Source: Ignicoccus islandicus DSM 13165 (GTDB lineage: Archaea > Thermoproteota > Thermoprotei_A > Sulfolobales > Ignicoccaceae). Taken from it: a DNA stretch of 32,000 nucleotides. The notes below the pieces were generated by a model that was not told the DNA's origin, ran no database searches, and saw only the letters and a list, made by a program, of their open reading frames with translations. The translations under genes were made by a program, and so were the position numbers. The DNA lies in assembly GCF_001481685.1 (NCBI RefSeq), contig NZ_CP006867.1, positions 720,001-752,000 of the forward strand, given 5' to 3'. This document shows positions 1,306-32,000 of the stretch, one piece after another (position 1 is the first letter of the stretch; every line of letters starts with the position of its first letter).

Positions 1306-2024
1306 AATGCTACGACATCGACGAGTTTCCAGTATGCTATCCTCAAACTAATGGGTGTTTTATTAGAGACGAACTCAAGAAAAGCAACATCGAGTGCGCA
1401 ATCTCCTATGGTAGGCGAGAAATCGGCGAGTATAAGGTCTTAGGCATTGGATTTAGAGGCTTGGTTTTCCTTGCGAGACACTCTACTGGCATAGTTGCGG
1501 TGAAGGTTCCCCGAATCGATCGGCTTTACGATATGAGACAAGAAGCCTTAAATCAAAAGTTAGCCTATCCCTATGCACCGAAAGTGTATGAATACTCGAA
1601 ATACTTTCTCGTTATGGAATACATTGAGTGTCCAGATCTATTAGATGTAGTTCAAGGACTATTGGCGGAAGATAACGTTCAAAGCATCAGAAAAGTTGTT
1701 TGCGATGTACTAAAAGCGGGCTATCAGCTTGATCAAAGAGGTATAGATCATGGAGAATTGGTTAGACCATGGGACCACGTTAAAGTGTGTAAAAACAGAG
1801 TGGTCTTTATAGATTTCAATAGCTCATCTATACATAGGAGACCTTCGAACTTAACCTCACTAATTTCGGCCTTGTTACTAAAGCCCTCACTTCCTTCATC
1901 TAGAATAGCTAACCTCCTAAACGTCGATAGAGCTAAACTGATAGAATTGTTAAGGGTTTATAAGAAAACACGAAACGAGCATTCTTTTAATAGGATTATC
2001 AAGATGGTGTGCCTATTAAATTAG
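1260..2024 (+). CDS. RIO/Bud32-like minimal Ser/Thr protein-kinase-fold protein (COG2112-like)
   Basis: Gly-rich loop GIGFRGLVF, VAVKV lysine, hinge LVMEYIE, catalytic loop IDHGELVRPWDHV, metal-binding FIDFNSS. Start uncertain: ATG 1260 overlaps cca by 46 nt; in-frame GTG 1293/1296 are alternatives. The 3' end overlaps the convergent gene by 26 nt. Confidence 0.55.
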   Translation: MASVVCLREVLVVDVECYDIDEFPVCYPQTNGCFIRDELKKSNIECAISYGRREIGEYKVLGIGFRGLVFLARHSTGIVAVKVPRIDRLYDMRQEALNQKLAYPYAPKVYEYSKYFLVMEYIECPDLLDVVQGLLAEDNVQSIRKVVCDVLKAGYQLDQRGIDHGELVRPWDHVKVCKNRVVFIDFNSSSIHRRPSNLTSLISALLLKPSLPSSRIANLLNVDRAKLIELLRVYKKTRNEHSFNRIIKMVCLLN

Positions 2025-5000
2025 CGAACCATATGCTTAGCGCAATCAACGTAAGCACTATTGTAATGGAACTTATCGCAAAGGACATAGCTTGAAGTAC
2101 GTTACCTGGTGTTTGAGTAGAGCTGACAATTCCAATTGACAGTAGCATCGCGCTAGAGAGTAGTATTACTAAAGGTAGTTTCCTCCAAGGGTTCCAGGGC
2201 TGTATAGTACCACTCCTCATGAGCTTTGGTAGAACTTCCTCAATGGGTTGCACTTTTTCAGATTCAATAGGCTTACGATTCTCTTCTACTTCCAGTTGGA
2301 TAATTGAGTTTCCGAGAGGTACCATTAGTTCTTTGCTTCCTATTGTCACCTTAATTGATTCCTTCGGGTATACTAGTGCCACGGCTCCATTAACTTCTAA
2401 TTCATATTTATCGTCAATCTTTATCTTCGCTTTACTCAAGTCTTTAAATAAGCTTCTCGATTCTATTATTTCAATGATAGTTGAATGGTAATCGTACTTT
2501 AGTGGATCGTCTAGATATATAACTACTGGAGCCACGAGCTTCTTAAATCCTTTCGATATTAAGAGCGGTGGCAACGTAGCTTTGTGAACTATACCATTTT
2601 TCTCTATTACCTCTAAATCTATGTTCCCTGAGAGCCATTCATATGGAACCATGACAGTAGTAGTTCCGTTTACCGAATATTCTAGGTAGGTGTCGTTTGA
2701 ATAGAGTTTTAGTTTAACATCATAGGGCTTTCCATACTTAAGCACAGTAAAGGTCACGGTCGCATTAACTGGTGCAACCTTTTGGGGCGTAGGGACGTCT
2801 ATTACAATCGTAGTTCCGTCTAACTTTACGTTATAAATCTTATCGGAAACTTGTAATACTGCGGAATCGCTCGGTACGATGATTATGCCTACGCCGTTGT
2901 CCAATCGCACCGGGATACCATTTATCTTTATTATAGATGGTATGGGCGTGCCCTTGTACTGGGTAACGACTGTAGCATATCGGTAATTCGGATTTGTCTG
3001 GTATCCTTTGCAAATTATGCTAATAGATGCTGGTACTTTATTGTAAGATAACTTAACGCCCCTGATCGTGTTGTTATCAATTAGTATGGTCAATGGCGTT
3101 TCGAGCCATTGCTGGGGTATTAGTACTGAAGTCTTATTTTGAGATAGTACGTAATTAAGCGAGTACATTCCATCGGTTAACACAAGGTTAGTTCCGTTTA
3201 ATCCGTAGAGATACACGTTAATTGGTGTGTCTAGAGGATACGGCGGTGGAGATCGTGGTAGCTCTCTTTTGTAGGGAATCTTTATGATAATTTCGTTACC
3301 GCCTAAGTTGAACTTAAGCTTTTTATTCAATACCGTTAAAGTTACTTCCTTTTTAGGGTATACGAGAACTATTGAGCCGTTTATCTGAAGGTTGTATTTA
3401 TCATCGAGGATTACGTCTACGTTTGCCGGTTTGTTAACCTCATCGTAGACCGCAATTATCTTGGACGAGTAATAGTTGTAACTAGGTGTCTCTTTAATTA
3501 GAATATAGAGAGGGGATTGTATAGCAGTTCCATTGAAGTTGGTCAGTAGAGGAGGTATCTGCGTCTTGTGAACGTTTTGATTAACTATAATATTAAGTAG
3601 AAGATATTTACTGAGCCAATCTGAGGGTATTGCTATGTACGTACTGCTAGAGTTAACGAAATACTTTAAGTATTCCTCTCCGTCCGATATTGAAATTATT
3701 GCGCTTACAGGTCTTAACATGTGAATTACCATGTATGCATCTAGATTACTCAAGTGCTCTTCAGATGGAACCTTTAGGTAGACGGTCTGGCCGTTTAGAG
3801 CTATGTTGTATTCCTTCCCATTAAATGTGATTTTCAAGAGCTTCTTTGGATATACAATGACAGTTGCACCATTTACTGGGAGCCGATACTTATTGTCTAA
3901 AATTACGATTCCTTTAGTTACGTTTCCTCCTTGATCTTCGACTACAATTCTTACAGTATAGTAATTATAGAAAGCATACGTTGTATTGACGAATATATTT
4001 ATATCAGAGAGACTATTTCCTACTTTTAGAACTGGTAAGGTGAAGTTTAACATCCTAAGCGTATTGTTCTCATTTACTATCAGTGTAGCCGATAACGTAC
4101 TTGAGACCCAGTCCTTCGGTAGAGCTATTATTGTCTCATTTGAGATAACGTAGCTTAGAGTGTATATATCTTTTCTTAGTTTTAATATGCCATTTTCAGC
4201 ACCATGAAGGTTTAGTTTAATCATCTCAGTTAAAGGCTGTGGAGGTATAATTGTCTCGTTCCTTTGTTTCTTGTATAAGATAGGGAGCCTTATTTCATTT
4301 ATGCCGAGTGGCACAAGTAAACTTGACTCGGAATCGTCACTACCGATTACTCTCAATGGCAAGACTGGGTAATCGGGAACGATTAGCTTGAATCTATCCT
4401 TCTTTACTACTACCCAGCTATGCCCACTGTTGCAACTGACGGAAAGCGGTGACGGTAGCTCCGAGTAAACCTCAATGGTGTGACCGCTCTTTACGCCATT
4501 ACCTGGACAGAAGGCTACCCAATCTCCATCGTTTACTCTAAAGGTTGTATAATAGGAATTGTTTACCTTGGCGTTGATATCGACTTTACACGGAAGGAGC
4601 ACGTATTGTGGATATGGTCCTACTTTTAGTCTCATTAAAGTAGAGTTGAAGTATAAGTCTACGGATATAGGCTCCGGTGAAACTAGGAAGGCGCCACAAG
4701 CAGTATAGGATACGGGTTTCGGTACTTTTACATAGACGCTTGTTGTTGTTGGCGATATAACTAGGCTTTTAGATATCCTACTTCCATTGAGAGAGGCTAT
4801 CGATATTACTTGAGTTGTTGGAGGTATCGCTAAATAGCACTCTTTAGGACATTCTACTAGGTTTGAATCTATTATCAAGGCAAACTTTTCATCGGATTCC
4901 ACTTTGACCAGTCTTAGTACTGGTGCATTAGGTATTACGATAATTTTGGAATTGGAAAGCAAATCGAAGGATGTTATTAATGTACTGTTGTTTACCCTAA

Positions 5001-5988
5001 GTATAGCATCTCCAGAGCACGGTATTGCTAATCTCAAACTGACGTAGGGTGGTGCGGTAGAGCGTATTTTTAGGCCCTTTAGTGACTCTATCAGAATCGA
5101 ATTAGATTGATTCGATGCTACAACGATCTCACTTTCACACTCTAACGAGTACTCGGAAGTCCCCAGAGAGGACAGTTTCTTAACAGTATTGCAAGAGAGT
5201 GGTACTATTACGTCTTTCGCCAAACTTTCGTAATATTGCCATGAGGTTACCGGAAGGAACTGAAAATCATTGAAAACAGATATTACATACCTAATCGTAG
5301 GGAAAGTAAACACTATCTTCGTTATTCCTCCTATATTTAATATTTGTGGAGGCGATGACGGATTGACGCTAGTAAGGATTAGCTTGGCCTTGTTGCAGTT
5401 AGCTAAATAGTATTCTGCTAGGTCTCCTAATTCCGAAGAACTTTTTGCTGATAACTTAAAATACGCATTCTCACCACTGCTGAGAAGAATTATATGTAAC
5501 CTCTCATTGAAATTCTCTGAACCTCCTTCTACTTGGTATACACTGTATCCATTAAAGAAGGTGCTCTCAGATGTCATAGTCATCGAATACTTGATGGAAT
5601 AGAGTACATGACCATTCGGTAAGAGAACAGGTTCGTTAAACGTCACGTTTTTGGAGATAATTCGAGATACTCCGATAAAGGGAAATATGGATTTGGTTAC
5701 GCATCTAGCTATAGAAATCAATGGCGTTTGCTCGATTAAACATCTAGTTAGGTTGCGTTCAATCGCTTCTTCCACCTTCTCTTGAAGGGATTTAGACACA
5801 GTTTCAACGCTTACTTTCAAATTATTGAATTTTAAGTCTCTTATACTTAGATTGCCGTCAATTGATACGTGCATGTATGATGGTTTTAAATAAGTTAACG
5901 CTGAGGGATTCGAATAATCTATTGTCAGATTAATTTGCATTGAATTGACTACAATTAACACCATCAAGAGTGCTATTGTAACCCTCAT
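1999..5988 (-). CDS. Large secreted, C-terminally membrane-anchored, N-glycosylation-sequon-rich surface protein (1,329 aa) with four tandem modules; function unknown
   Basis: Uninterrupted 4-kb ORF. ATG 5988 gives MRVTIALLMVLIVVNSMQ (signal-peptide-like); the track start at 6003 is a TTG five codons upstream. The C-terminus has two hydrophobic segments (LPLVILLSSAMLLSIGIVS, AISSITIVLTLIALSIWFANLI). There are dozens of N-x-S/T sequons, paired Cys in the N-terminal half and repeated modules in the C-terminal half. Confidence 0.75.
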   Translation of the reverse strand: MRVTIALLMVLIVVNSMQINLTIDYSNPSALTYLKPSYMHVSIDGNLSIRDLKFNNLKVSVETVSKSLQEKVEEAIERNLTRCLIEQTPLISIARCVTKSIFPFIGVSRIISKNVTFNEPVLLPNGHVLYSIKYSMTMTSESTFFNGYSVYQVEGGSENFNERLHIILLSSGENAYFKLSAKSSSELGDLAEYYLANCNKAKLILTSVNPSSPPQILNIGGITKIVFTFPTIRYVISVFNDFQFLPVTSWQYYESLAKDVIVPLSCNTVKKLSSLGTSEYSLECESEIVVASNQSNSILIESLKGLKIRSTAPPYVSLRLAIPCSGDAILRVNNSTLITSFDLLSNSKIIVIPNAPVLRLVKVESDEKFALIIDSNLVECPKECYLAIPPTTQVISIASLNGSRISKSLVISPTTTSVYVKVPKPVSYTACGAFLVSPEPISVDLYFNSTLMRLKVGPYPQYVLLPCKVDINAKVNNSYYTTFRVNDGDWVAFCPGNGVKSGHTIEVYSELPSPLSVSCNSGHSWVVVKKDRFKLIVPDYPVLPLRVIGSDDSESSLLVPLGINEIRLPILYKKQRNETIIPPQPLTEMIKLNLHGAENGILKLRKDIYTLSYVISNETIIALPKDWVSSTLSATLIVNENNTLRMLNFTLPVLKVGNSLSDINIFVNTTYAFYNYYTVRIVVEDQGGNVTKGIVILDNKYRLPVNGATVIVYPKKLLKITFNGKEYNIALNGQTVYLKVPSEEHLSNLDAYMVIHMLRPVSAIISISDGEEYLKYFVNSSSTYIAIPSDWLSKYLLLNIIVNQNVHKTQIPPLLTNFNGTAIQSPLYILIKETPSYNYYSSKIIAVYDEVNKPANVDVILDDKYNLQINGSIVLVYPKKEVTLTVLNKKLKFNLGGNEIIIKIPYKRELPRSPPPYPLDTPINVYLYGLNGTNLVLTDGMYSLNYVLSQNKTSVLIPQQWLETPLTILIDNNTIRGVKLSYNKVPASISIICKGYQTNPNYRYATVVTQYKGTPIPSIIKINGIPVRLDNGVGIIIVPSDSAVLQVSDKIYNVKLDGTTIVIDVPTPQKVAPVNATVTFTVLKYGKPYDVKLKLYSNDTYLEYSVNGTTTVMVPYEWLSGNIDLEVIEKNGIVHKATLPPLLISKGFKKLVAPVVIYLDDPLKYDYHSTIIEIIESRSLFKDLSKAKIKIDDKYELEVNGAVALVYPKESIKVTIGSKELMVPLGNSIIQLEVEENRKPIESEKVQPIEEVLPKLMRSGTIQPWNPWRKLPLVILLSSAMLLSIGIVSSTQTPGNVLQAMSFAISSITIVLTLIALSIWFANLIGTPS
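2280..4225 (-). repeat. Four tandem, divergent ~165-aa protein-level repeat modules (~490-500 nt period) inside the surface-protein gene
   Basis: A recurring block is seen in four copies: ..Y.L.YV.S.N.T...IP..W(L/V)S..L...I..N ... (I/V)ILD(D/N)KY.L.(V/I)NG..V(L/I)VYPK...(I/L)T......(F/Y)N(I/L).L.G....I.(V/I)P. The D(D/N)KY codons lie at about 3887-3898, 3396-3407 and 2403-2414. The third copy, near 2900, is degenerate (IIKINGIPVRLDNGVGIIIVPSD). Similarity is at the protein level only; the DNA copies are not near-identical. Confidence 0.7.
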
Positions 5989-6066
5989 TGAAGTTATTCC
6001 CAAAATGGGGATGTATAGATAAGTTAGTAAACTATTTGCCTACCATACTAAATTGGGATAAAGAAA

Positions 6067-27566: not shown

Positions 27567-27655
27567 GCCGGGGTGCCCGAGCGGCCCAAGGGGGTGGCCT
27601 GGAGAGCCACTCCCCCTAACGGGGGGCGCGGGTTCGAATCCCGCCCCCGGCGCCA
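27567..27655 (+). tRNA. tRNA-Ser (anticodon GGA), class II with long variable arm, genomically encoded CCA, no intron
   Basis: Hand-folded. Acceptor GCCGGGG/CCCCGGC; anticodon stem GTGGC/GCCAC with loop CTGGAGA (GGA at 27601-27603); variable arm CCCCC-TAAC-GGGGG; T arm GCGGG-TTCGAAT-CCCGC; discriminator G; then CCA. Confidence 0.9.
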
Positions 27656-27657
27656 CC

Positions 27658-28677
27658 TCATAGAGTCACGAACTCGATTGATTCTATTCCATACTTGTTT
27701 ATTGGAAGAAGTTTGGAGATCTTTCTCAAGTCTACGTTACATTTACCCTTGCATTTCACGACAATTCTGCTATCACTCCTCTCGATGAAATATATATTTG
27801 AGGAACCGGGATTAAGCGCATCTATTAACTTCATCACCTTGACGTCATCGTCTTCTTCTTCGCGAGCCATTTTCTCGAGAACGTTCAAGGCCTCTTCCCC
27901 AATAACTGATTCCACCTCTTCCTTGCCTCCGAGCGCATCTAGCCTTACCTCTAGCAATTCCTCGGGGGAACCGTGACCTTCTATTAAGAACCGCACTAAT
28001 TGTGCGTAAGCTATGCTTAGGGGTAAGTCTGCTGCCACAGTCCACGAAATCCTGTCGTTGAAAACCTTCTCCCCCTTTCCGAAGTCGTAGTTCCGAGCTA
28101 TCGCTAGTAATAAGTCCAATTTCGATGTACCCATTTCTCTGGAAAGTAAATCGAGTGCCTTTACACCCATTAAGAGAGGACCTTTGACTTCTACGCTTAC
28201 ATCCTTTGTAGAGTTAGAATACAAAGGAGCTATTTCCGATGCTACAGTGCTTAGAGCTTCCTCTAATTCTCCTTCCCCTTCGGCTGTTTTGAGCAATGAG
28301 AAAAGGGCCACGCAAGGTCTCGGATCGTCTCCACATATAGTTATGGTCTTCTTATGACGCAGTATAGAGAGAGCATCATGTAAGTTAGTGACCTCTGTCA
28401 TCTCTGAGCTTATTGGAATAGGATAGAAATTGTAACCCATGAAAATGTAGTCGCTATATAGATCTGAATAAAGATCATCTAAAACGAGAAGGGCCCTAGA
28501 GGAATCTTCATCTAGGAGGTAGTCTAGATTAGATCCTTCTATTATCCAATGGTCTTTAATGACCGCCCTCTTTACCCTCAATCTGATCCCGACCGTCACC
28601 GAATAATAGATATATGTCTCAAAAACGTATGTGTCTAAATGGTCGGTAAAGGAGGATCTCGAAGATATATTCGCCAA
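27658..28677 (-). CDS. Hypothetical acidic cytoplasmic protein, 339 aa, divergent from the molybdoenzyme gene
   Basis: Clean ORF (TTG start at 28677) ending 2 nt from the tRNA. No signal peptide, TM or recognisable motif. Acidic patch EKMAREEEDDDVKV. Confidence 0.5.
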   Translation of the reverse strand: MANISSRSSFTDHLDTYVFETYIYYSVTVGIRLRVKRAVIKDHWIIEGSNLDYLLDEDSSRALLVLDDLYSDLYSDYIFMGYNFYPIPISSEMTEVTNLHDALSILRHKKTITICGDDPRPCVALFSLLKTAEGEGELEEALSTVASEIAPLYSNSTKDVSVEVKGPLLMGVKALDLLSREMGTSKLDLLLAIARNYDFGKGEKVFNDRISWTVAADLPLSIAYAQLVRFLIEGHGSPEELLEVRLDALGGKEEVESVIGEEALNVLEKMAREEEDDDVKVMKLIDALNPGSSNIYFIERSDSRIVVKCKGKCNVDLRKISKLLPINKYGIESIEFVTL

Positions 28678-28750
28678 GGATCTTTCAAACCGTTTATGTT
28701 TTCAGCTACCCTTATTAGTGATACAGTGAGAGAATTCCAATGGTGAGTGC

Positions 28751-31700
28751 TTGAGTTCAGTGAACCAAACTAGGAGAAAGATTATAAAGACCATTGCCAT
28801 TGGCGCTGCCTTCGCTGCTATCAGTAAGGCTTCTAAAGTTCCAAACGAACAACTCGCGGCTGAGTTAGAGGGCATTACCTCTAAGCTTCAAAAGAACGTT
28901 AGGATGGCTCCAGTGAGAATAGAAAGGATACCAGTAGGTCCTTGTAGGTTCTGTGGAACTGGATGTGGCGTGCAAGCCTTAGCTAAGGTTGACACTGCCA
29001 CTGGAGAAACCCTCGATATGCTAGCTATTCTCGGTATGCCTAAGTACCCAGTAAACAGGGGAGCGATGTGTACGAAAGCATTCTACATCCATAAAGCGCT
29101 CGGTTACGGTGGTAATAAGGAAGCTTACAAACTAAGGCTCAAGAAACCAGCAGTTATTAAGGACTGGATAATTCCCGAACTAGGTAGGCCTCCGATAAAG
29201 GAAGACGAGATATTCCTTGCACCGAGAGTCAAGTACGGTCAAGTTAGCAAGAACTACGACGCTAAGCTGACTCAAGAAGAACATTACGCAAAGAACATGG
29301 TAGAAGTCGACTGGGACACTGCAGTAAAGTTCTTCGTTACTATGTTCAAATACGCCCTTAAGAGGTACGGACCTCACAGCTTCGCTTACTACGGAAGCGG
29401 ACAATTAGGAACCGAGGAGAGCTACGTAATCAACAAGTTAACCAAGGGAGGTATTCACACTAACAACCTAGACGGAAACCCGAGAATGTGTATGGTCTCA
29501 GCGGTAGGTGGTTTCATTACCTCCTTCGGTGCTGACGAGCCCGAGGTATCCTACGATCACATCGACATAGTAGACAAGGCCAACCCCGCTTCTAAGATGC
29601 ACGCAACCACGTTCTTCTTAATAGGTACTAACACTGCTGAGGCTCACCCGATAGTCTTCGGTAGAATAGCTAAGGTTAAGGAGAAGAACCCCAACGCAAA
29701 GGTCATACTAGCTGACCCAAGGAAGACCAGGAGCGGAGCTATCGCCGATCTATGGCTACCTCTAAGGTGGTCCATGGACGTCGCTCTGATGAACACTCTC
29801 GCTCACATAGTTGCCTTCGAACTCGACCACTGTAAGGTCATCGACGTAGAGAAAGGTATAGTTCAATGCGATGAGAAGTACGTTGATATCAAGTGGCTCA
29901 AGAGGCATGCTGACTTCGCCGTAATTAAGAACAGCCAGAAGACTTGGGCTAAGAAGGACTATAACACCAAGTACAACAAGATGGGAGAGCTCAACGAAGT
30001 ATGGGACATGGGCACCACTGCAAGCGCCGCCACCAACTACGGAATGTACCCGAGCGTAGGTAAGAAGTACGCCTCCGAAGAGGACGTAGAGAGGGACTGG
30101 TGGAAGGGCTTCGCCCTATACTTGAAGTTCCTTGAGACCTACAAGCCCGAAATAATGGCCAAGTTACTCTTCGGTGACCAAGCACCGCTAATCAACAAGA
30201 AGTTGGCCGAAAAGCTAGTTGCAGCCGGCGAGCTAGCTCCTGAGAAGGTTAACCTAGGAGCTAATACTCCCTTCGTTGAGATAGACCCTGTCGAAGCACT
30301 GAGATTAGCTGCGAAGTGGATGGCTAACGAGAAGGGTCAGAAGGGCAGGACCTTAGTGTTCTGGACCATGGGCGTAAACCAGAAGATGCAAGGTGTCCAC
30401 ACAGTCAACACAATAATCAACTTCCTCGCACTAACTGGCCAGCTATTGAAGTGGGGAGCCGGTGCCCTAAGCCTTACCGGACAGCCGAACGCTTGCGGAG
30501 GTATCAGAGACCAAGGAGGTTTGGCTCACGTACTACCTTACGGAAGGCTAATTGCTGTTAAGGCTGCTAGAGAGGAAGTCGAAAACATATGGAGGCAAGT
30601 AACTGCTGAGTTAATGAGAAGGCAAGGATACAGCGAGAGCGAAATACAAAAGACAATGAAGGAGATCTACGTCCACCCATCCCCCGGACCTCACGTAATC
30701 GAGATGTTCAGAAGAGTGAACGCCGGACAGCTAAAGATCGTCTGGATAGCCGAAACCAACCCCGGACAAAGCCTACCGAACGTATACAAGTACAGAGTGG
30801 GAATGGCCAAGCCACACGACGATTGCAAGGCCTTCCCGTTCGTAGTTGTAAGCGATATTTACCCAACTAGAACGACCGACGTAGCCGACCTAGTCTTCCC
30901 GGCAGCCGCTTACGCTGAGAAGGAGTTCTTCTATGGATGTACTGAGAGAAGGTACTCAGTAGTTAATTACACAATAAGGCCTCCGGGAGAGGCTATAGGC
31001 GACCACGTAATATTCGCCTTAGTAGGAAAGGCCCTAGAAGACGAAGGCCTAGTGCCCAAAGGCATCGTAAGTGGGTTCTTCCCTGAGAACGTTGACGAGG
31101 CCGCTAAGAAGGAAGGTATCAGCTGGGTTCAGTACGTGGTTAAGAAGAGCCAAGAGAAGAAGTGGCATATGAAGTTCCTAGACAACATATACGACGTAGA
31201 CATACTGAGCCTATCTAAGAACACCTACTATGACTTCAGCTACGCAAAAAGAGAAATATTCAGGAAGAAGACGTGGGAAGAACAGCACGGTTACAGATGG
31301 CCATGGCCATGGACCTACGCTGTTAACAAGAACGTGAAGGAGAGATACGATAAATACGAGAGCGCTACCAGATACGCCTATCCGTACGATCCTCTAATGC
31401 CGGAACCTAAGCTAGTTAAAGAGATATACAATAAGATAAAGAACATGAACGATCCAGAGGAGATAAAGCACTACCTAATGAGTATTCCAGACGAGGAACT
31501 GCACCCCATACACAAACACAAGTGGGTCGCTAAGGCCTATAAGAATCCAGCGCTACTGAAGTGGGTATTAAAGAACATTGTCGAGGAAATCGACGACATT
31601 GCCTACAAGGAAGCTAACAAGCTCAACCCAGAGTGGTACGGCTTGTTCTATGCGAAGCCCACTGGTAGAATGACCGTATGGGCTAGGCCGTGGTTGCCGG

Positions 31701-32000
31701 TCAACATAGATCACAACACCGGTGTGGTAACCATAAATGACAACGTCATCATCGCCTACGAGAAGCTTGATGCAGACGCCGTCTTCAAAGGTAAGATAAA
31801 CATCTTCGAGGCACCAAAAGGACCATTCGTCGTGGCTGAGAAACACGTAGGTAAACCAGTCAAGGACGTCAATGAGGCCCTCGAGATGCTAAAGACTAAG
31901 AGCTGGGGCGAGATGATCTCCAACCCAGAGTACAAGAAGTATCTAGAATCGATATTTGCCATAGCTCTAGCTCCTGCTGAAGTACCTGGATTCAAACTAG
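28751..32000 (+). CDS. Tat-exported molybdopterin (Mo/W-bisPGD) oxidoreductase catalytic subunit, NapA/NasA-like, oversized; 3' end outside the window; NOT in the supplied ORF track
   Basis: The + frame with codon starts at 28751+3n has its last stop at 28727-28729 and then no stop to base 32000. I translated it by hand throughout. Start is TTG 28751 (GGTGA at 28742-28746) or GTG 28760. The N-terminus (M)SSVNQTRRKIIKTIAIGAAFAAISKASK is a twin-arginine signal. PCRFCGTGCGV...NRGAMCTK is a C-x2-C-x3-C-x27-C [4Fe-4S] motif. GSGQLGTEESYVINKLTKGGIHTNNLDGNPRMCMVSAVGGF is the Cys Mo-ligand segment. FLIGTNTAEAHPIVF, LVFWTMGVNQ, LSLTGQPNACGG and VVVSDIYPT..DLVFPAAAYAEKE are also present. Confidence 0.85.
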   Translation, partial: MSSVNQTRRKIIKTIAIGAAFAAISKASKVPNEQLAAELEGITSKLQKNVRMAPVRIERIPVGPCRFCGTGCGVQALAKVDTATGETLDMLAILGMPKYPVNRGAMCTKAFYIHKALGYGGNKEAYKLRLKKPAVIKDWIIPELGRPPIKEDEIFLAPRVKYGQVSKNYDAKLTQEEHYAKNMVEVDWDTAVKFFVTMFKYALKRYGPHSFAYYGSGQLGTEESYVINKLTKGGIHTNNLDGNPRMCMVSAVGGFITSFGADEPEVSYDHIDIVDKANPASKMHATTFFLIGTNTAEAHPIVFGRIAKVKEKNPNAKVILADPRKTRSGAIADLWLPLRWSMDVALMNTLAHIVAFELDHCKVIDVEKGIVQCDEKYVDIKWLKRHADFAVIKNSQKTWAKKDYNTKYNKMGELNEVWDMGTTASAATNYGMYPSVGKKYASEEDVERDWWKGFALYLKFLETYKPEIMAKLLFGDQAPLINKKLAEKLVAAGELAPEKVNLGANTPFVEIDPVEALRLAAKWMANEKGQKGRTLVFWTMGVNQKMQGVHTVNTIINFLALTGQLLKWGAGALSLTGQPNACGGIRDQGGLAHVLPYGRLIAVKAAREEVENIWRQVTAELMRRQGYSESEIQKTMKEIYVHPSPGPHVIEMFRRVNAGQLKIVWIAETNPGQSLPNVYKYRVGMAKPHDDCKAFPFVVVSDIYPTRTTDVADLVFPAAAYAEKEFFYGCTERRYSVVNYTIRPPGEAIGDHVIFALVGKALEDEGLVPKGIVSGFFPENVDEAAKKEGISWVQYVVKKSQEKKWHMKFLDNIYDVDILSLSKNTYYDFSYAKREIFRKKTWEEQHGYRWPWPWTYAVNKNVKERYDKYESATRYAYPYDPLMPEPKLVKEIYNKIKNMNDPEEIKHYLMSIPDEELHPIHKHKWVAKAYKNPALLKWVLKNIVEEIDDIAYKEANKLNPEWYGLFYAKPTGRMTVWARPWLPVNIDHNTGVVTINDNVIIAYEKLDADAVFKGKINIFEAPKGPFVVAEKHVGKPVKDVNEALEMLKTKSWGEMISNPEYKKYLESIFAIALAPAEVPGFKL

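Follow-up and report, generated by a model that had tools for sequence, protein, structure and literature searches.

Periplasmic nitrate reductases (Nap) have been described in a monomeric form, represented by the 723-amino-acid (aa) NapA of Desulfovibrio desulfuricans (structures 2NAP and 2JIM), and in a heterodimeric form, in which a catalytic subunit of approx. 800 aa is joined by a di-haem NapB (Escherichia coli, Cupriavidus necator, Rhodobacter sphaeroides). A longer type of enzyme has already been noticed in three literatures, on Ignicoccus in 2008, on Desulfurivibrio in 2017 and 2025, and on Pyrodictium in 2017 and 2021. In Desulfurivibrio alkaliphilus, the napAGHD genes are highly expressed with nitrate, and their catalytic product was termed a novel type of NapA (PMC5516251); moreover, NapA of D. 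dismutans is strongly upregulated on nitrate (PMC12142623). Pyrodictium delaneyi grows on nitrate and carries long-form Nap genes (PMC5556600), and in this organism the Nap protein has been detected and nitrate reductase activity measured (PMC8105010). Here, a gene of this kind is analysed in Ignicoccus islandicus DSM 13165. It lies at the right edge of a stretch of 32,000 nucleotides (contig NZ_CP006867.1, positions 720,001 to 752,000; hereafter, the window) and, with a probability of approx. 0.6, is the napA gene of a NapB-less, long-form periplasmic nitrate reductase of the type that combines NapA with NapG, NapH, and a NapD-like protein.

An intact gene for a long NapA

On the + strand, the frame that begins at 28751 runs without a stop through base 31999 (1,083 codons) and is closed upstream by a TGA at 28727-28729; the chance probability of 1,083 stop-free codons is approx. 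3e-23. An earlier note, made from the letters of this DNA alone, had drawn attention to an open frame of more than 1,080 codons and supposed that it was missing from the list of open reading frames (ORFs) for want of a stop. Both statements are correct, as ORFs that run off the source go unlisted. The first in-frame start is TTG at 28751, which is used in GenBank, whereas RefSeq uses GTG at 28760. The end of the gene was read on a public contig (L062) that is 100% identical to window positions 27627-32000 and extends 10.5 kb beyond them: napA ends at residue 1246, 489 bases past the window, and position 32491 would be its end with the stop codon included. Over its whole length, the translation is 100% identical to ALU11751.1, a "nitrate reductase" of 1,246 aa from I. 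islandicus DSM 13165 (RefSeq form WP_075050620.1, 1,243 aa). The open frame is a real, intact, and already annotated gene, and the earlier expectation of a protein well above 1,200 aa was accurate. Because of the complete match to ALU11751.1, the host is counted among the Desulfurococcales and not, as had been guessed, among Sulfolobales-like archaea. The gene and its catalytic features within the window are as follows (all on the + strand):

28751-32000, running off the window: napA, probable catalytic subunit of a long-form periplasmic nitrate reductase (ALU11751.1), first 1,083 of 1,246 codons (open frame, 100% identity)
28751-28837: twin-arginine translocation (Tat) signal with n-region T-R-R-K-I-I-K (28769-28789) and h-region TIAIGAAFAAIS (28790-28825), then KASK (sequence)
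28943-29071: [4Fe-4S] motif C65-x2-C68-x3-C72-x34-C107, then invariant Lys109 (PF04879, alignment)
29474-29515: Mo/W-ligand motif GNPRMCMVSAVGGF, with Cys247 as predicted metal ligand, then Met248 (alignment to D. desulfuricans NapA)
30359-30382: FWTMGVNQ, with Met540 as the equivalent of Met308 of D. desulfuricans NapA (HMMER alignment to 2NAP/2JIM)
30473-30511: LTGQPNACGGIRD, with Arg586 as the equivalent of Arg354 and Gln578 of Gln346 of D. desulfuricans NapA (alignment)

The leader reads as T-R-R-K-I-I-K followed by a 12-residue hydrophobic core, TIAIGAAFAAIS, and is thus the twin-arginine leader that had been proposed. In an alignment of 112 homologues, which is also the basis of all statements on invariance below, its pair of arginines is conserved to at least 90%; moreover, PF10518 is recorded for some of the bacterial homologues. 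The motif CRFCGTGC (28943-28966) is of the Nap type, in agreement with the earlier reading, and the fourth cysteine of the cluster is residue 107. PF04879 matches with an expectation value (E) of 1.3e-6 (28.5 bits against a cut-off of 22.7), and the four cysteines as well as Lys109 are invariant. The full protein also matches the molybdopterin domain PF00384 (E 1.5e-40) and, at residues 1104-1217, the cap domain PF01568 (E 4.9e-21). In all, the protein comprises a Tat leader, a single [4Fe-4S] site, two molybdopterin domains, and a cap. The cap begins 21 residues past the window, which agrees with the remark that it had not been reached at the edge. The earlier note had further associated a missing cap with a pseudogene; since PF01568 is found downstream, this ground for calling the gene a pseudogene falls away.

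In Nap enzymes, the metal-ligand cysteine is followed by methionine, whereas in formate dehydrogenases cysteine or selenocysteine is followed by histidine. The stretch GNPRMCMVSAVGGF, recognized earlier as a Nap-type ligand region, aligns residue for residue with GNPRLCMASAVGGY of D. desulfuricans NapA, and P-R-x-C-M is invariant at the metal-ligand site. In addition, FWTMGVNQ aligns to LWCMGINQ (W, M, G, N, and Q invariant), and LTGQPNACGGIRD aligns to LTGQPNACGGVRD (T-G-Q-P-x-A-C-G-x-x-R invariant). Met308, Gln346, and Arg354 are active-site residues of the D. desulfuricans enzyme. As judged from these alignments, the active site of the I. islandicus protein is Nap-type and comprises Cys247-Met248, Met540, Gln578, and Arg586.

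The top NCBIfam models for the protein are two NapA equivalogs (E 1.4e-81 and 1.8e-78), followed by the α subunit of formate dehydrogenase (Fdh; E 1e-58) and by assimilatory nitrate reductase (Nas; E approx. 1e-48). The solved structure closest in sequence is the monomeric NapA of D. desulfuricans (E 9e-115), with approx. 388 bits versus approx. 270 for the heterodimeric type. A scan of genomes with clade-specific insertion motifs, chosen to avoid swamping by classical NapA, yielded 58 loci, among them the nap locus of D. dismutans; these signature motifs retrieved long forms only. I. islandicus, I. hospitalis, Hyperthermus butylicus, and Pyrolobus fumarii are not among the 58 loci and were reached by protein look-ups. 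In a neighbour-joining tree, the 29 long forms from archaea and the 67 from bacteria make up two monophyletic groups, which are sisters and together form one clade of 96, in a quick distance tree that carries no support values and has an unreliable root because the classical sequences formed no clean outgroup. The I. islandicus protein almost certainly belongs to this long-form clade. The leader, the Nap-type motifs, the insertions described below, and the length of 1,246 aa likewise bear out the earlier description of a Tat-signalled, oversized NapA-like molybdoenzyme.

NapA of I. islandicus and that of a sister lineage (GCA_054020855.1) share 91.9% amino acid identity (nonsynonymous divergence, dN, 0.044; synonymous divergence, dS, approx. 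1.5; dN/dS approx. 0.03), whereas the flanking genes are 56-85% identical (84.5% for GMP synthase). Moreover, all 96 columns that are invariant across the homologues are retained in I. islandicus NapA. The gene is under strong purifying selection, and its constraint is stronger than that of its housekeeping neighbours. In a comparison of the window with sister contig L066, the proportion of synonymous differences (pS) is 0.65 in napA versus 0.79-0.88 in six neighbouring genes; the lower value could be due to the strong codon bias of a highly expressed gene, or the two lineages may have exchanged napA more recently.

Insertions around a NapA core

When mapped against classical NapA sequences of approx. 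770-780 aa, the protein shows approx. 450 extra residues in at least eight ordered insertions, together with a short C-terminal tail. The insertions are distributed as follows (all on the + strand; alignment and model):

29102-29290: insertion 1 (residues 118-180), separating the Fe-S domain from the first molybdopterin domain
29822-30286: insertions 2-4 (residues 358-375, 399-452, and 473-512), including the archaea-only pair Cys361/Cys373
30593-30667: insertion 5 (residues 615-639), a helical hairpin
31088-32000: insertions 6-8 (residues 780-809, 872-962, and 981-1098), a large block before the cap, the last of which runs off the window

Insertion 1 is missing in classical NapA, is found in both bacterial and archaeal long forms, and is modelled as ordered helices with a predicted local distance difference test score (pLDDT) above 90. 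Insertions 2-4 are modelled as ordered β-rich and helical elements, and insertions 6-8, into which the clade signatures AYPYDP and WARPW fall, as a helical bundle and a mixed α/β unit with pLDDT mostly above 90. The sizes estimated in the earlier note (approx. 45, approx. 80, and more than 330 aa) were roughly right: the measured values are approx. 50-60 extra aa after the Fe-S domain, approx. 110 between residues 358 and 512, and approx. 235 between the cap and the motif GEAIGDH, which is present, as had been quoted, at 30986-31006. Approximately 315 inserted residues, two thirds of the total, are common, in register, to bacterial proteins of approx. 1,110 aa, and approx. 139 are archaea-specific. 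An additional cofactor site was also considered for the insertions, and it was rejected, as they contain no CxxCH haem motif and no additional cysteine cluster, only the Cys361/Cys373 pair.

An AlphaFold2 model of residues 47-1246 has a pLDDT of 92.9 and a predicted template modelling score of 0.94. Its top match in Foldseek is 2NAP (E 3e-53), with a template modelling (TM) score of 0.90 when normalized to the target and 0.55 when normalized to the query, and with 26% identity over the structural alignment. This pair of scores indicates that a complete NapA core is present and makes up little more than half of the protein; the whole fold of Desulfovibrio NapA, all 720 residues of the target, is predicted to be contained in the I. 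islandicus protein. The two proteins are also alike in the [4Fe-4S] cluster, the Cys-Met motif, the equivalents of Met308, Gln346, and Arg354, the cap, and the lack of a NapB partner. They differ in length: with its signal and C-terminal tail, the Ignicoccus protein exceeds the 723-aa chain by 523 residues, and approx. 450 of its residues lie in the insertions. The heterodimeric NapAB enzymes belong to the same branch (Nap/Nas/Fdh) of the Mo/W-bis-PGD superfamily and share the catalytic motifs (TM 0.81-0.83); however, they match less well than the monomeric type, and no NapB or NapC gene occurs in the annotated archaeal loci.

Closer relatives are the NapA proteins of approx. 1,107-1,116 aa encoded by napAGHD in D. 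alkaliphilus and D. dismutans and by relatives in Nitrospirota, Caldimicrobium, and Kryptonia. These have the same insertion positions and NapG/NapH partners and are 37-41% identical to I. islandicus NapA, to whose clade theirs is sister in the neighbour-joining tree. In contrast to them, the archaeal proteins carry the approx. 139 further residues, the C-terminal tail, and the Cys361/Cys373 pair; in I. islandicus, moreover, the operon is split and the host does not grow on nitrate. The closest relatives are encoded in archaeal Nap clusters. P. delaneyi (Pyrde_1154/Pdsh_02795, NapADFGH), the nitrate ammonifier P. fumarii, H. butylicus, and I. hospitalis have orthologues of 1,240-1,250 aa with the same Tat leader and insertions, and the identity measured for the first three is 67-75%. 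In P. fumarii and H. butylicus, the napA orthologue is followed by napG and napH, and I. hospitalis Igni_1377-1380 comprises a NapD-like gene, a 1,249-aa napA, napG, and napH. The archaeal clusters keep napA, napG, and napH together, whereas I. islandicus and one sister metagenome-assembled genome (MAG) have split them.

A side observation concerns the spacer between the Tat hydrophobic region and the Fe-S domain. In NapA of Pyrodictiaceae (P. fumarii, P0015) and in three related metagenome NapAs (P0018, P0022, and P0029), it is a threonine-rich linker of up to approx. 40 residues, which suggests an uncleaved, possibly glycosylated, membrane tether. In I. islandicus NapA, the spacer in the same place is shorter and not threonine-rich.

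Partner genes and the split nap locus

In a comparison of 65 loci, napG and napH follow the long napA in nearly all of the approx. 50 loci for which downstream DNA is available. In I. islandicus, a tblastn search of 32 kb upstream and 10 kb downstream of napA gave no homologue of either NapG or NapH. The partner subunits, which had been expected just beyond the window, are encoded instead at a second locus (L064). This locus begins with genes for an NrfD-like protein (301 aa), a PhsA-like molybdoenzyme (822 aa), and a four-cluster Fe-S protein (226 aa). Next come napG, whose 308-aa product carries a Tat signal of its own, napH (497 aa), and a convergent gene of 113 aa, followed by an ABC transporter with an SBP_bac_11 binding protein, possibly for molybdate or tungstate. 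The sister lineage has the same two loci, one with napA and the neighbouring gene upX alone (see below) and the other with napGH and the napD-like gene behind the PhsA-like operon. In I. pacificus, I. hospitalis, and another Ignicoccus-like MAG, napA, napG, and napH are kept together. Since the sister lineage shares the split and other Ignicoccus keep the cluster, the split is a derived and stable state of the I. islandicus lineage. The second locus and the napD-like genes are located as follows:

L064 4928-11836 (I. islandicus) and L068 341-7259 (sister MAG): NrfD/PhsA-like/Fe-S genes with napG-napH co-oriented directly downstream
L064 11495-11836 (- strand), L065 2650-2991 (+), L002 15881-16234 (-), L001 16188-16556 (+), and L006 14134-14553 (-): NapD-like gene, approx. 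113-139 aa

The NapD-like protein adjoins napH or napA in five archaeal genomes, with 36-46% identity. All five of the five members match PF03927, each below the cut-off (best E 0.002), and this conserved protein of approx. 113-139 aa is probably the archaeal NapD. The search for cytochromes covered the nap clusters themselves, and those of I. islandicus, I. hospitalis, Hyperthermus, and Pyrolobus contain no cytochrome gene, neither for NapB nor for NapC. Large multi-haem cytochromes c (835-859 aa, with coiled-coil-like regions) were seen within 10 kb of the nap cluster in H. butylicus and P. fumarii and none near the Ignicoccus nap loci. NapH itself occurs in two sizes: in I. pacificus, I. 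islandicus, and the Ignicoccus-like MAG it has 472-521 aa and an N-terminal hydrophobic extension of approx. 200-250 residues, and in Pyrodictiaceae and I. hospitalis it has approx. 310-320 aa and lacks this extension. The genes in question are:

L001 23217-23729, L002 1-392, and L002 5219-7798: multi-haem cytochromes c
L006 12575-14140, L064 10001-11494, and L069 8001-9419: extended NapH

The gene that accompanies napA in both split lineages is upX, which is divergently transcribed and whose homologues adjoin nap genes in eight further distinct archaeal loci (a duplicate Pyrolobus contig, L003, is excluded), with varying position and orientation:

27658-28581, - strand: upX (EYM_04365), 307 aa (gene call)
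L006 6740-7630, L001 8876-9841, L002 8887-9846, L066 5836-6753, and L069 2066-2968: upX homologues

UpX has no match in Pfam or NCBIfam. An exhaustive HMMER search of 1.84 billion proteins found 21 representatives, and a word-indexed search found two. The protein has four invariant cysteines (C-G-x-x-P-x-x-C and C-x3-C), and its AlphaFold model reaches a pLDDT of 95.7. The N-terminal half weakly resembles the cysteine-phosphatase fold (PTP/DUSP/DUF442; E approx. 5e-3, TM 0.65-0.71 to the targets); however, the catalytic C-x5-R motif of cysteine phosphatases is not present. UpX may be a Nap-specific accessory factor.

On the other side of napA, the stop codon is followed by a T5 tract, an AT-rich spacer, a gene for a 102-aa rubrerythrin/EncFtn-like protein, two tiny ORFs, and unrelated genes. 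The rubrerythrin/EncFtn-like gene (L062 5006-5314) lies 140 bases after the napA stop, approx. 515 bases past the window end. The sister MAG has a 79%-identical 102-aa counterpart after napA (L066 1524-1832), and a 58%-identical homologue occurs approx. 9 kb upstream of napA in P. fumarii (L002 725-961). The other genes of the window are housekeeping genes, namely those for the CCA-adding enzyme, LeuRS, RadA, Nre, Kae1/TsaD, an aminotransferase, an RsmB-like methyltransferase, and the ATP-pyrophosphatase subunit of GMP synthase. The window also contains, at 1999-6003 on the - strand, an ORF of 1,334 aa for which no Pfam match was obtained at E <= 1e-4.

Proposed function and competing explanations

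Under the preferred reading, that of a NapB-less nitrate reductase, nitrate is somewhat favoured as the physiological substrate in I. islandicus. According to the established Nap model, the apoprotein, guarded by the NapD-like protein, would acquire its Mo- or W-bis-pyranopterin cofactor in the cytoplasm and would then be exported by the Tat pathway into the Ignicoccus intermembrane compartment. There, electrons would pass from quinol via membrane-bound NapH and Tat-exported, four-cluster NapG to the [4Fe-4S] cluster of NapA, and from this to the metal and to nitrate, yielding nitrite. Because Ignicoccus does not grow on nitrate, the enzyme would most likely serve as an auxiliary electron sink, or be active under other conditions, rather than act as the main respiratory reductase. 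The earlier remark that such an enzyme has no obvious assigned substrate was overstated for the clade, in which the Nap of Desulfurivibrio is induced by nitrate (PMC5516251, PMC12142623) and that of P. delaneyi is presumed to reduce nitrate (PMC5556600, PMC8105010); it does hold for the role in Ignicoccus itself (PMC2614490).

Several observations count against a nitrate reductase of this type. The scores stay below the NapA equivalog cut-offs (275 versus 904 bits for NF010055 and 264.8 versus 930.55 for TIGR01706). In I. islandicus, napG-napH are separated from napA and stand directly behind an operon that resembles those of thiosulfate or polysulfide reductases (PhsA/Psr-like). The abundance of Nap in P. 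delaneyi did not respond to nitrate (PMC8105010). Ignicoccus cannot use nitrate as its only electron acceptor, which is why the I. hospitalis complex was said in 2008 to have an unclear function (PMC2614490). Moreover, no purification, assay, or solved structure was found in the literature for any long-form enzyme, nor was any description of its size or insertion architecture. The role proposed for the insertions, a shell for docking or stabilizing NapG that would probably take over from the docking surface for NapB, is purely conjectural.

The main alternative is that in Ignicoccus the same fold and export route serve another substrate, be it a different oxyanion or a compound of sulfur or selenium (thiosulfate, polysulfide, selenate, or chlorate), with the enzyme wired to sulfur respiration via NapGH. 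This explanation is possible but rather unlikely. It agrees with the failure of Ignicoccus to respire nitrate (PMC2614490), with the detection of NapG in the proteome of I. hospitalis cells grown on H2 and sulfur without nitrate (PMC3149612), and with the co-orientation of napG-napH behind the NrfD/PhsA-like/Fe-S operon in I. islandicus and the sister lineage; the strong purifying selection further shows that the enzyme is important to organisms incapable of growth on nitrate. However, the active-site motifs are identical to those of the P. fumarii orthologue and match Desulfovibrio NapA at every residue checked, the orthologues are 68-75% identical overall, and adjacency to a PhsA-like operon is no evidence of electron sharing. 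In I. pacificus, I. hospitalis, and another Ignicoccus-like MAG, the nap genes have a cluster of their own. A more specific proposal, that NapA of the I. islandicus lineage was recruited away from nitrate respiration to a sulfur or selenium compound or another oxyanion and that upX encodes a new maturation factor, is improbable. It may draw on the position of napGH behind the PhsA-like operon and on the pairing of napA with the lineage-restricted, cysteine-bearing upX with its phosphatase-like fold; if it were true, UpX could act, for example, in sulfuration or insertion of the metal cofactor.

The remaining explanations are much weaker. That napA is a decaying, non-functional relic, orphaned by the loss or move of napGH, might be supposed from the failure to find napG or napH within 42 kb around it and from a host that does not grow on nitrate (PMC2614490). 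The gene is, however, of full length, free of frameshifts, and complete with its cap; it retains 96 of 96 invariant columns, its dN/dS of approx. 0.03 and identity of 91.9% compare with 84.5% for GMP synthase of the same lineage, and both lineages possess intact copies of napG, napH, and the napD-like gene at another locus. As napA is more constrained than its housekeeping neighbours and keeps the invariant columns, a relic or pseudogene was rejected and is regarded as very improbable. A formate dehydrogenase or CO2 reductase, an alternative raised for the I. hospitalis complex in 2008 (PMC2614490), would account for Fdh-α being the second-best family and for Fdh structures being the next-best folds. 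The metal ligand is nevertheless followed by methionine and not histidine, NapA models and structures score far better, the partners are NapG and NapH rather than FdhB-type proteins, and no formate dehydrogenase activity was found in extracts of I. hospitalis or P. delaneyi (PMC2614490, PMC8105010); this candidate, too, was rejected as highly unlikely. The least likely is a cytoplasmic assimilatory enzyme of the NasA/NarB type. NasA was named in the earlier note, and Nas models do match, but they rank below NapA, to which both the fold and the sequence point. In addition, the members of the clade share the twin-arginine signal, NapA is partnered by NapG and NapH, a quinol dehydrogenase pair of which NapG is itself Tat-signalled, and the P. 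delaneyi genome lacks nitrate/nitrite transporters for assimilation (PMC5556600). An assimilatory Nas was therefore rejected.

Since the gene is annotated and its kind has already been described, the present analysis is not the discovery of a new system. What it adds is a residue-level map of the insertions, a model with a complete NapA core and ordered additions, the split nap system, and the strength of selection on the orphaned napA. This gene is unusual in one respect, the location of the genes for its electron donors at a different place in the genome. NapA of the long, NapB-less form occurs widely among sulfur-cycling bacteria and hyperthermophilic archaea, and Desulfurivibrio and Pyrodictium are examples of organisms in which it appears to be responsible for nitrate reduction. 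Ignicoccus keeps napA under very strong selection without growing on nitrate, a point in its very small energy metabolism that has stood unexplained since 2008. The split gene arrangement and the co-travelling upX provide concrete handles for experiments.

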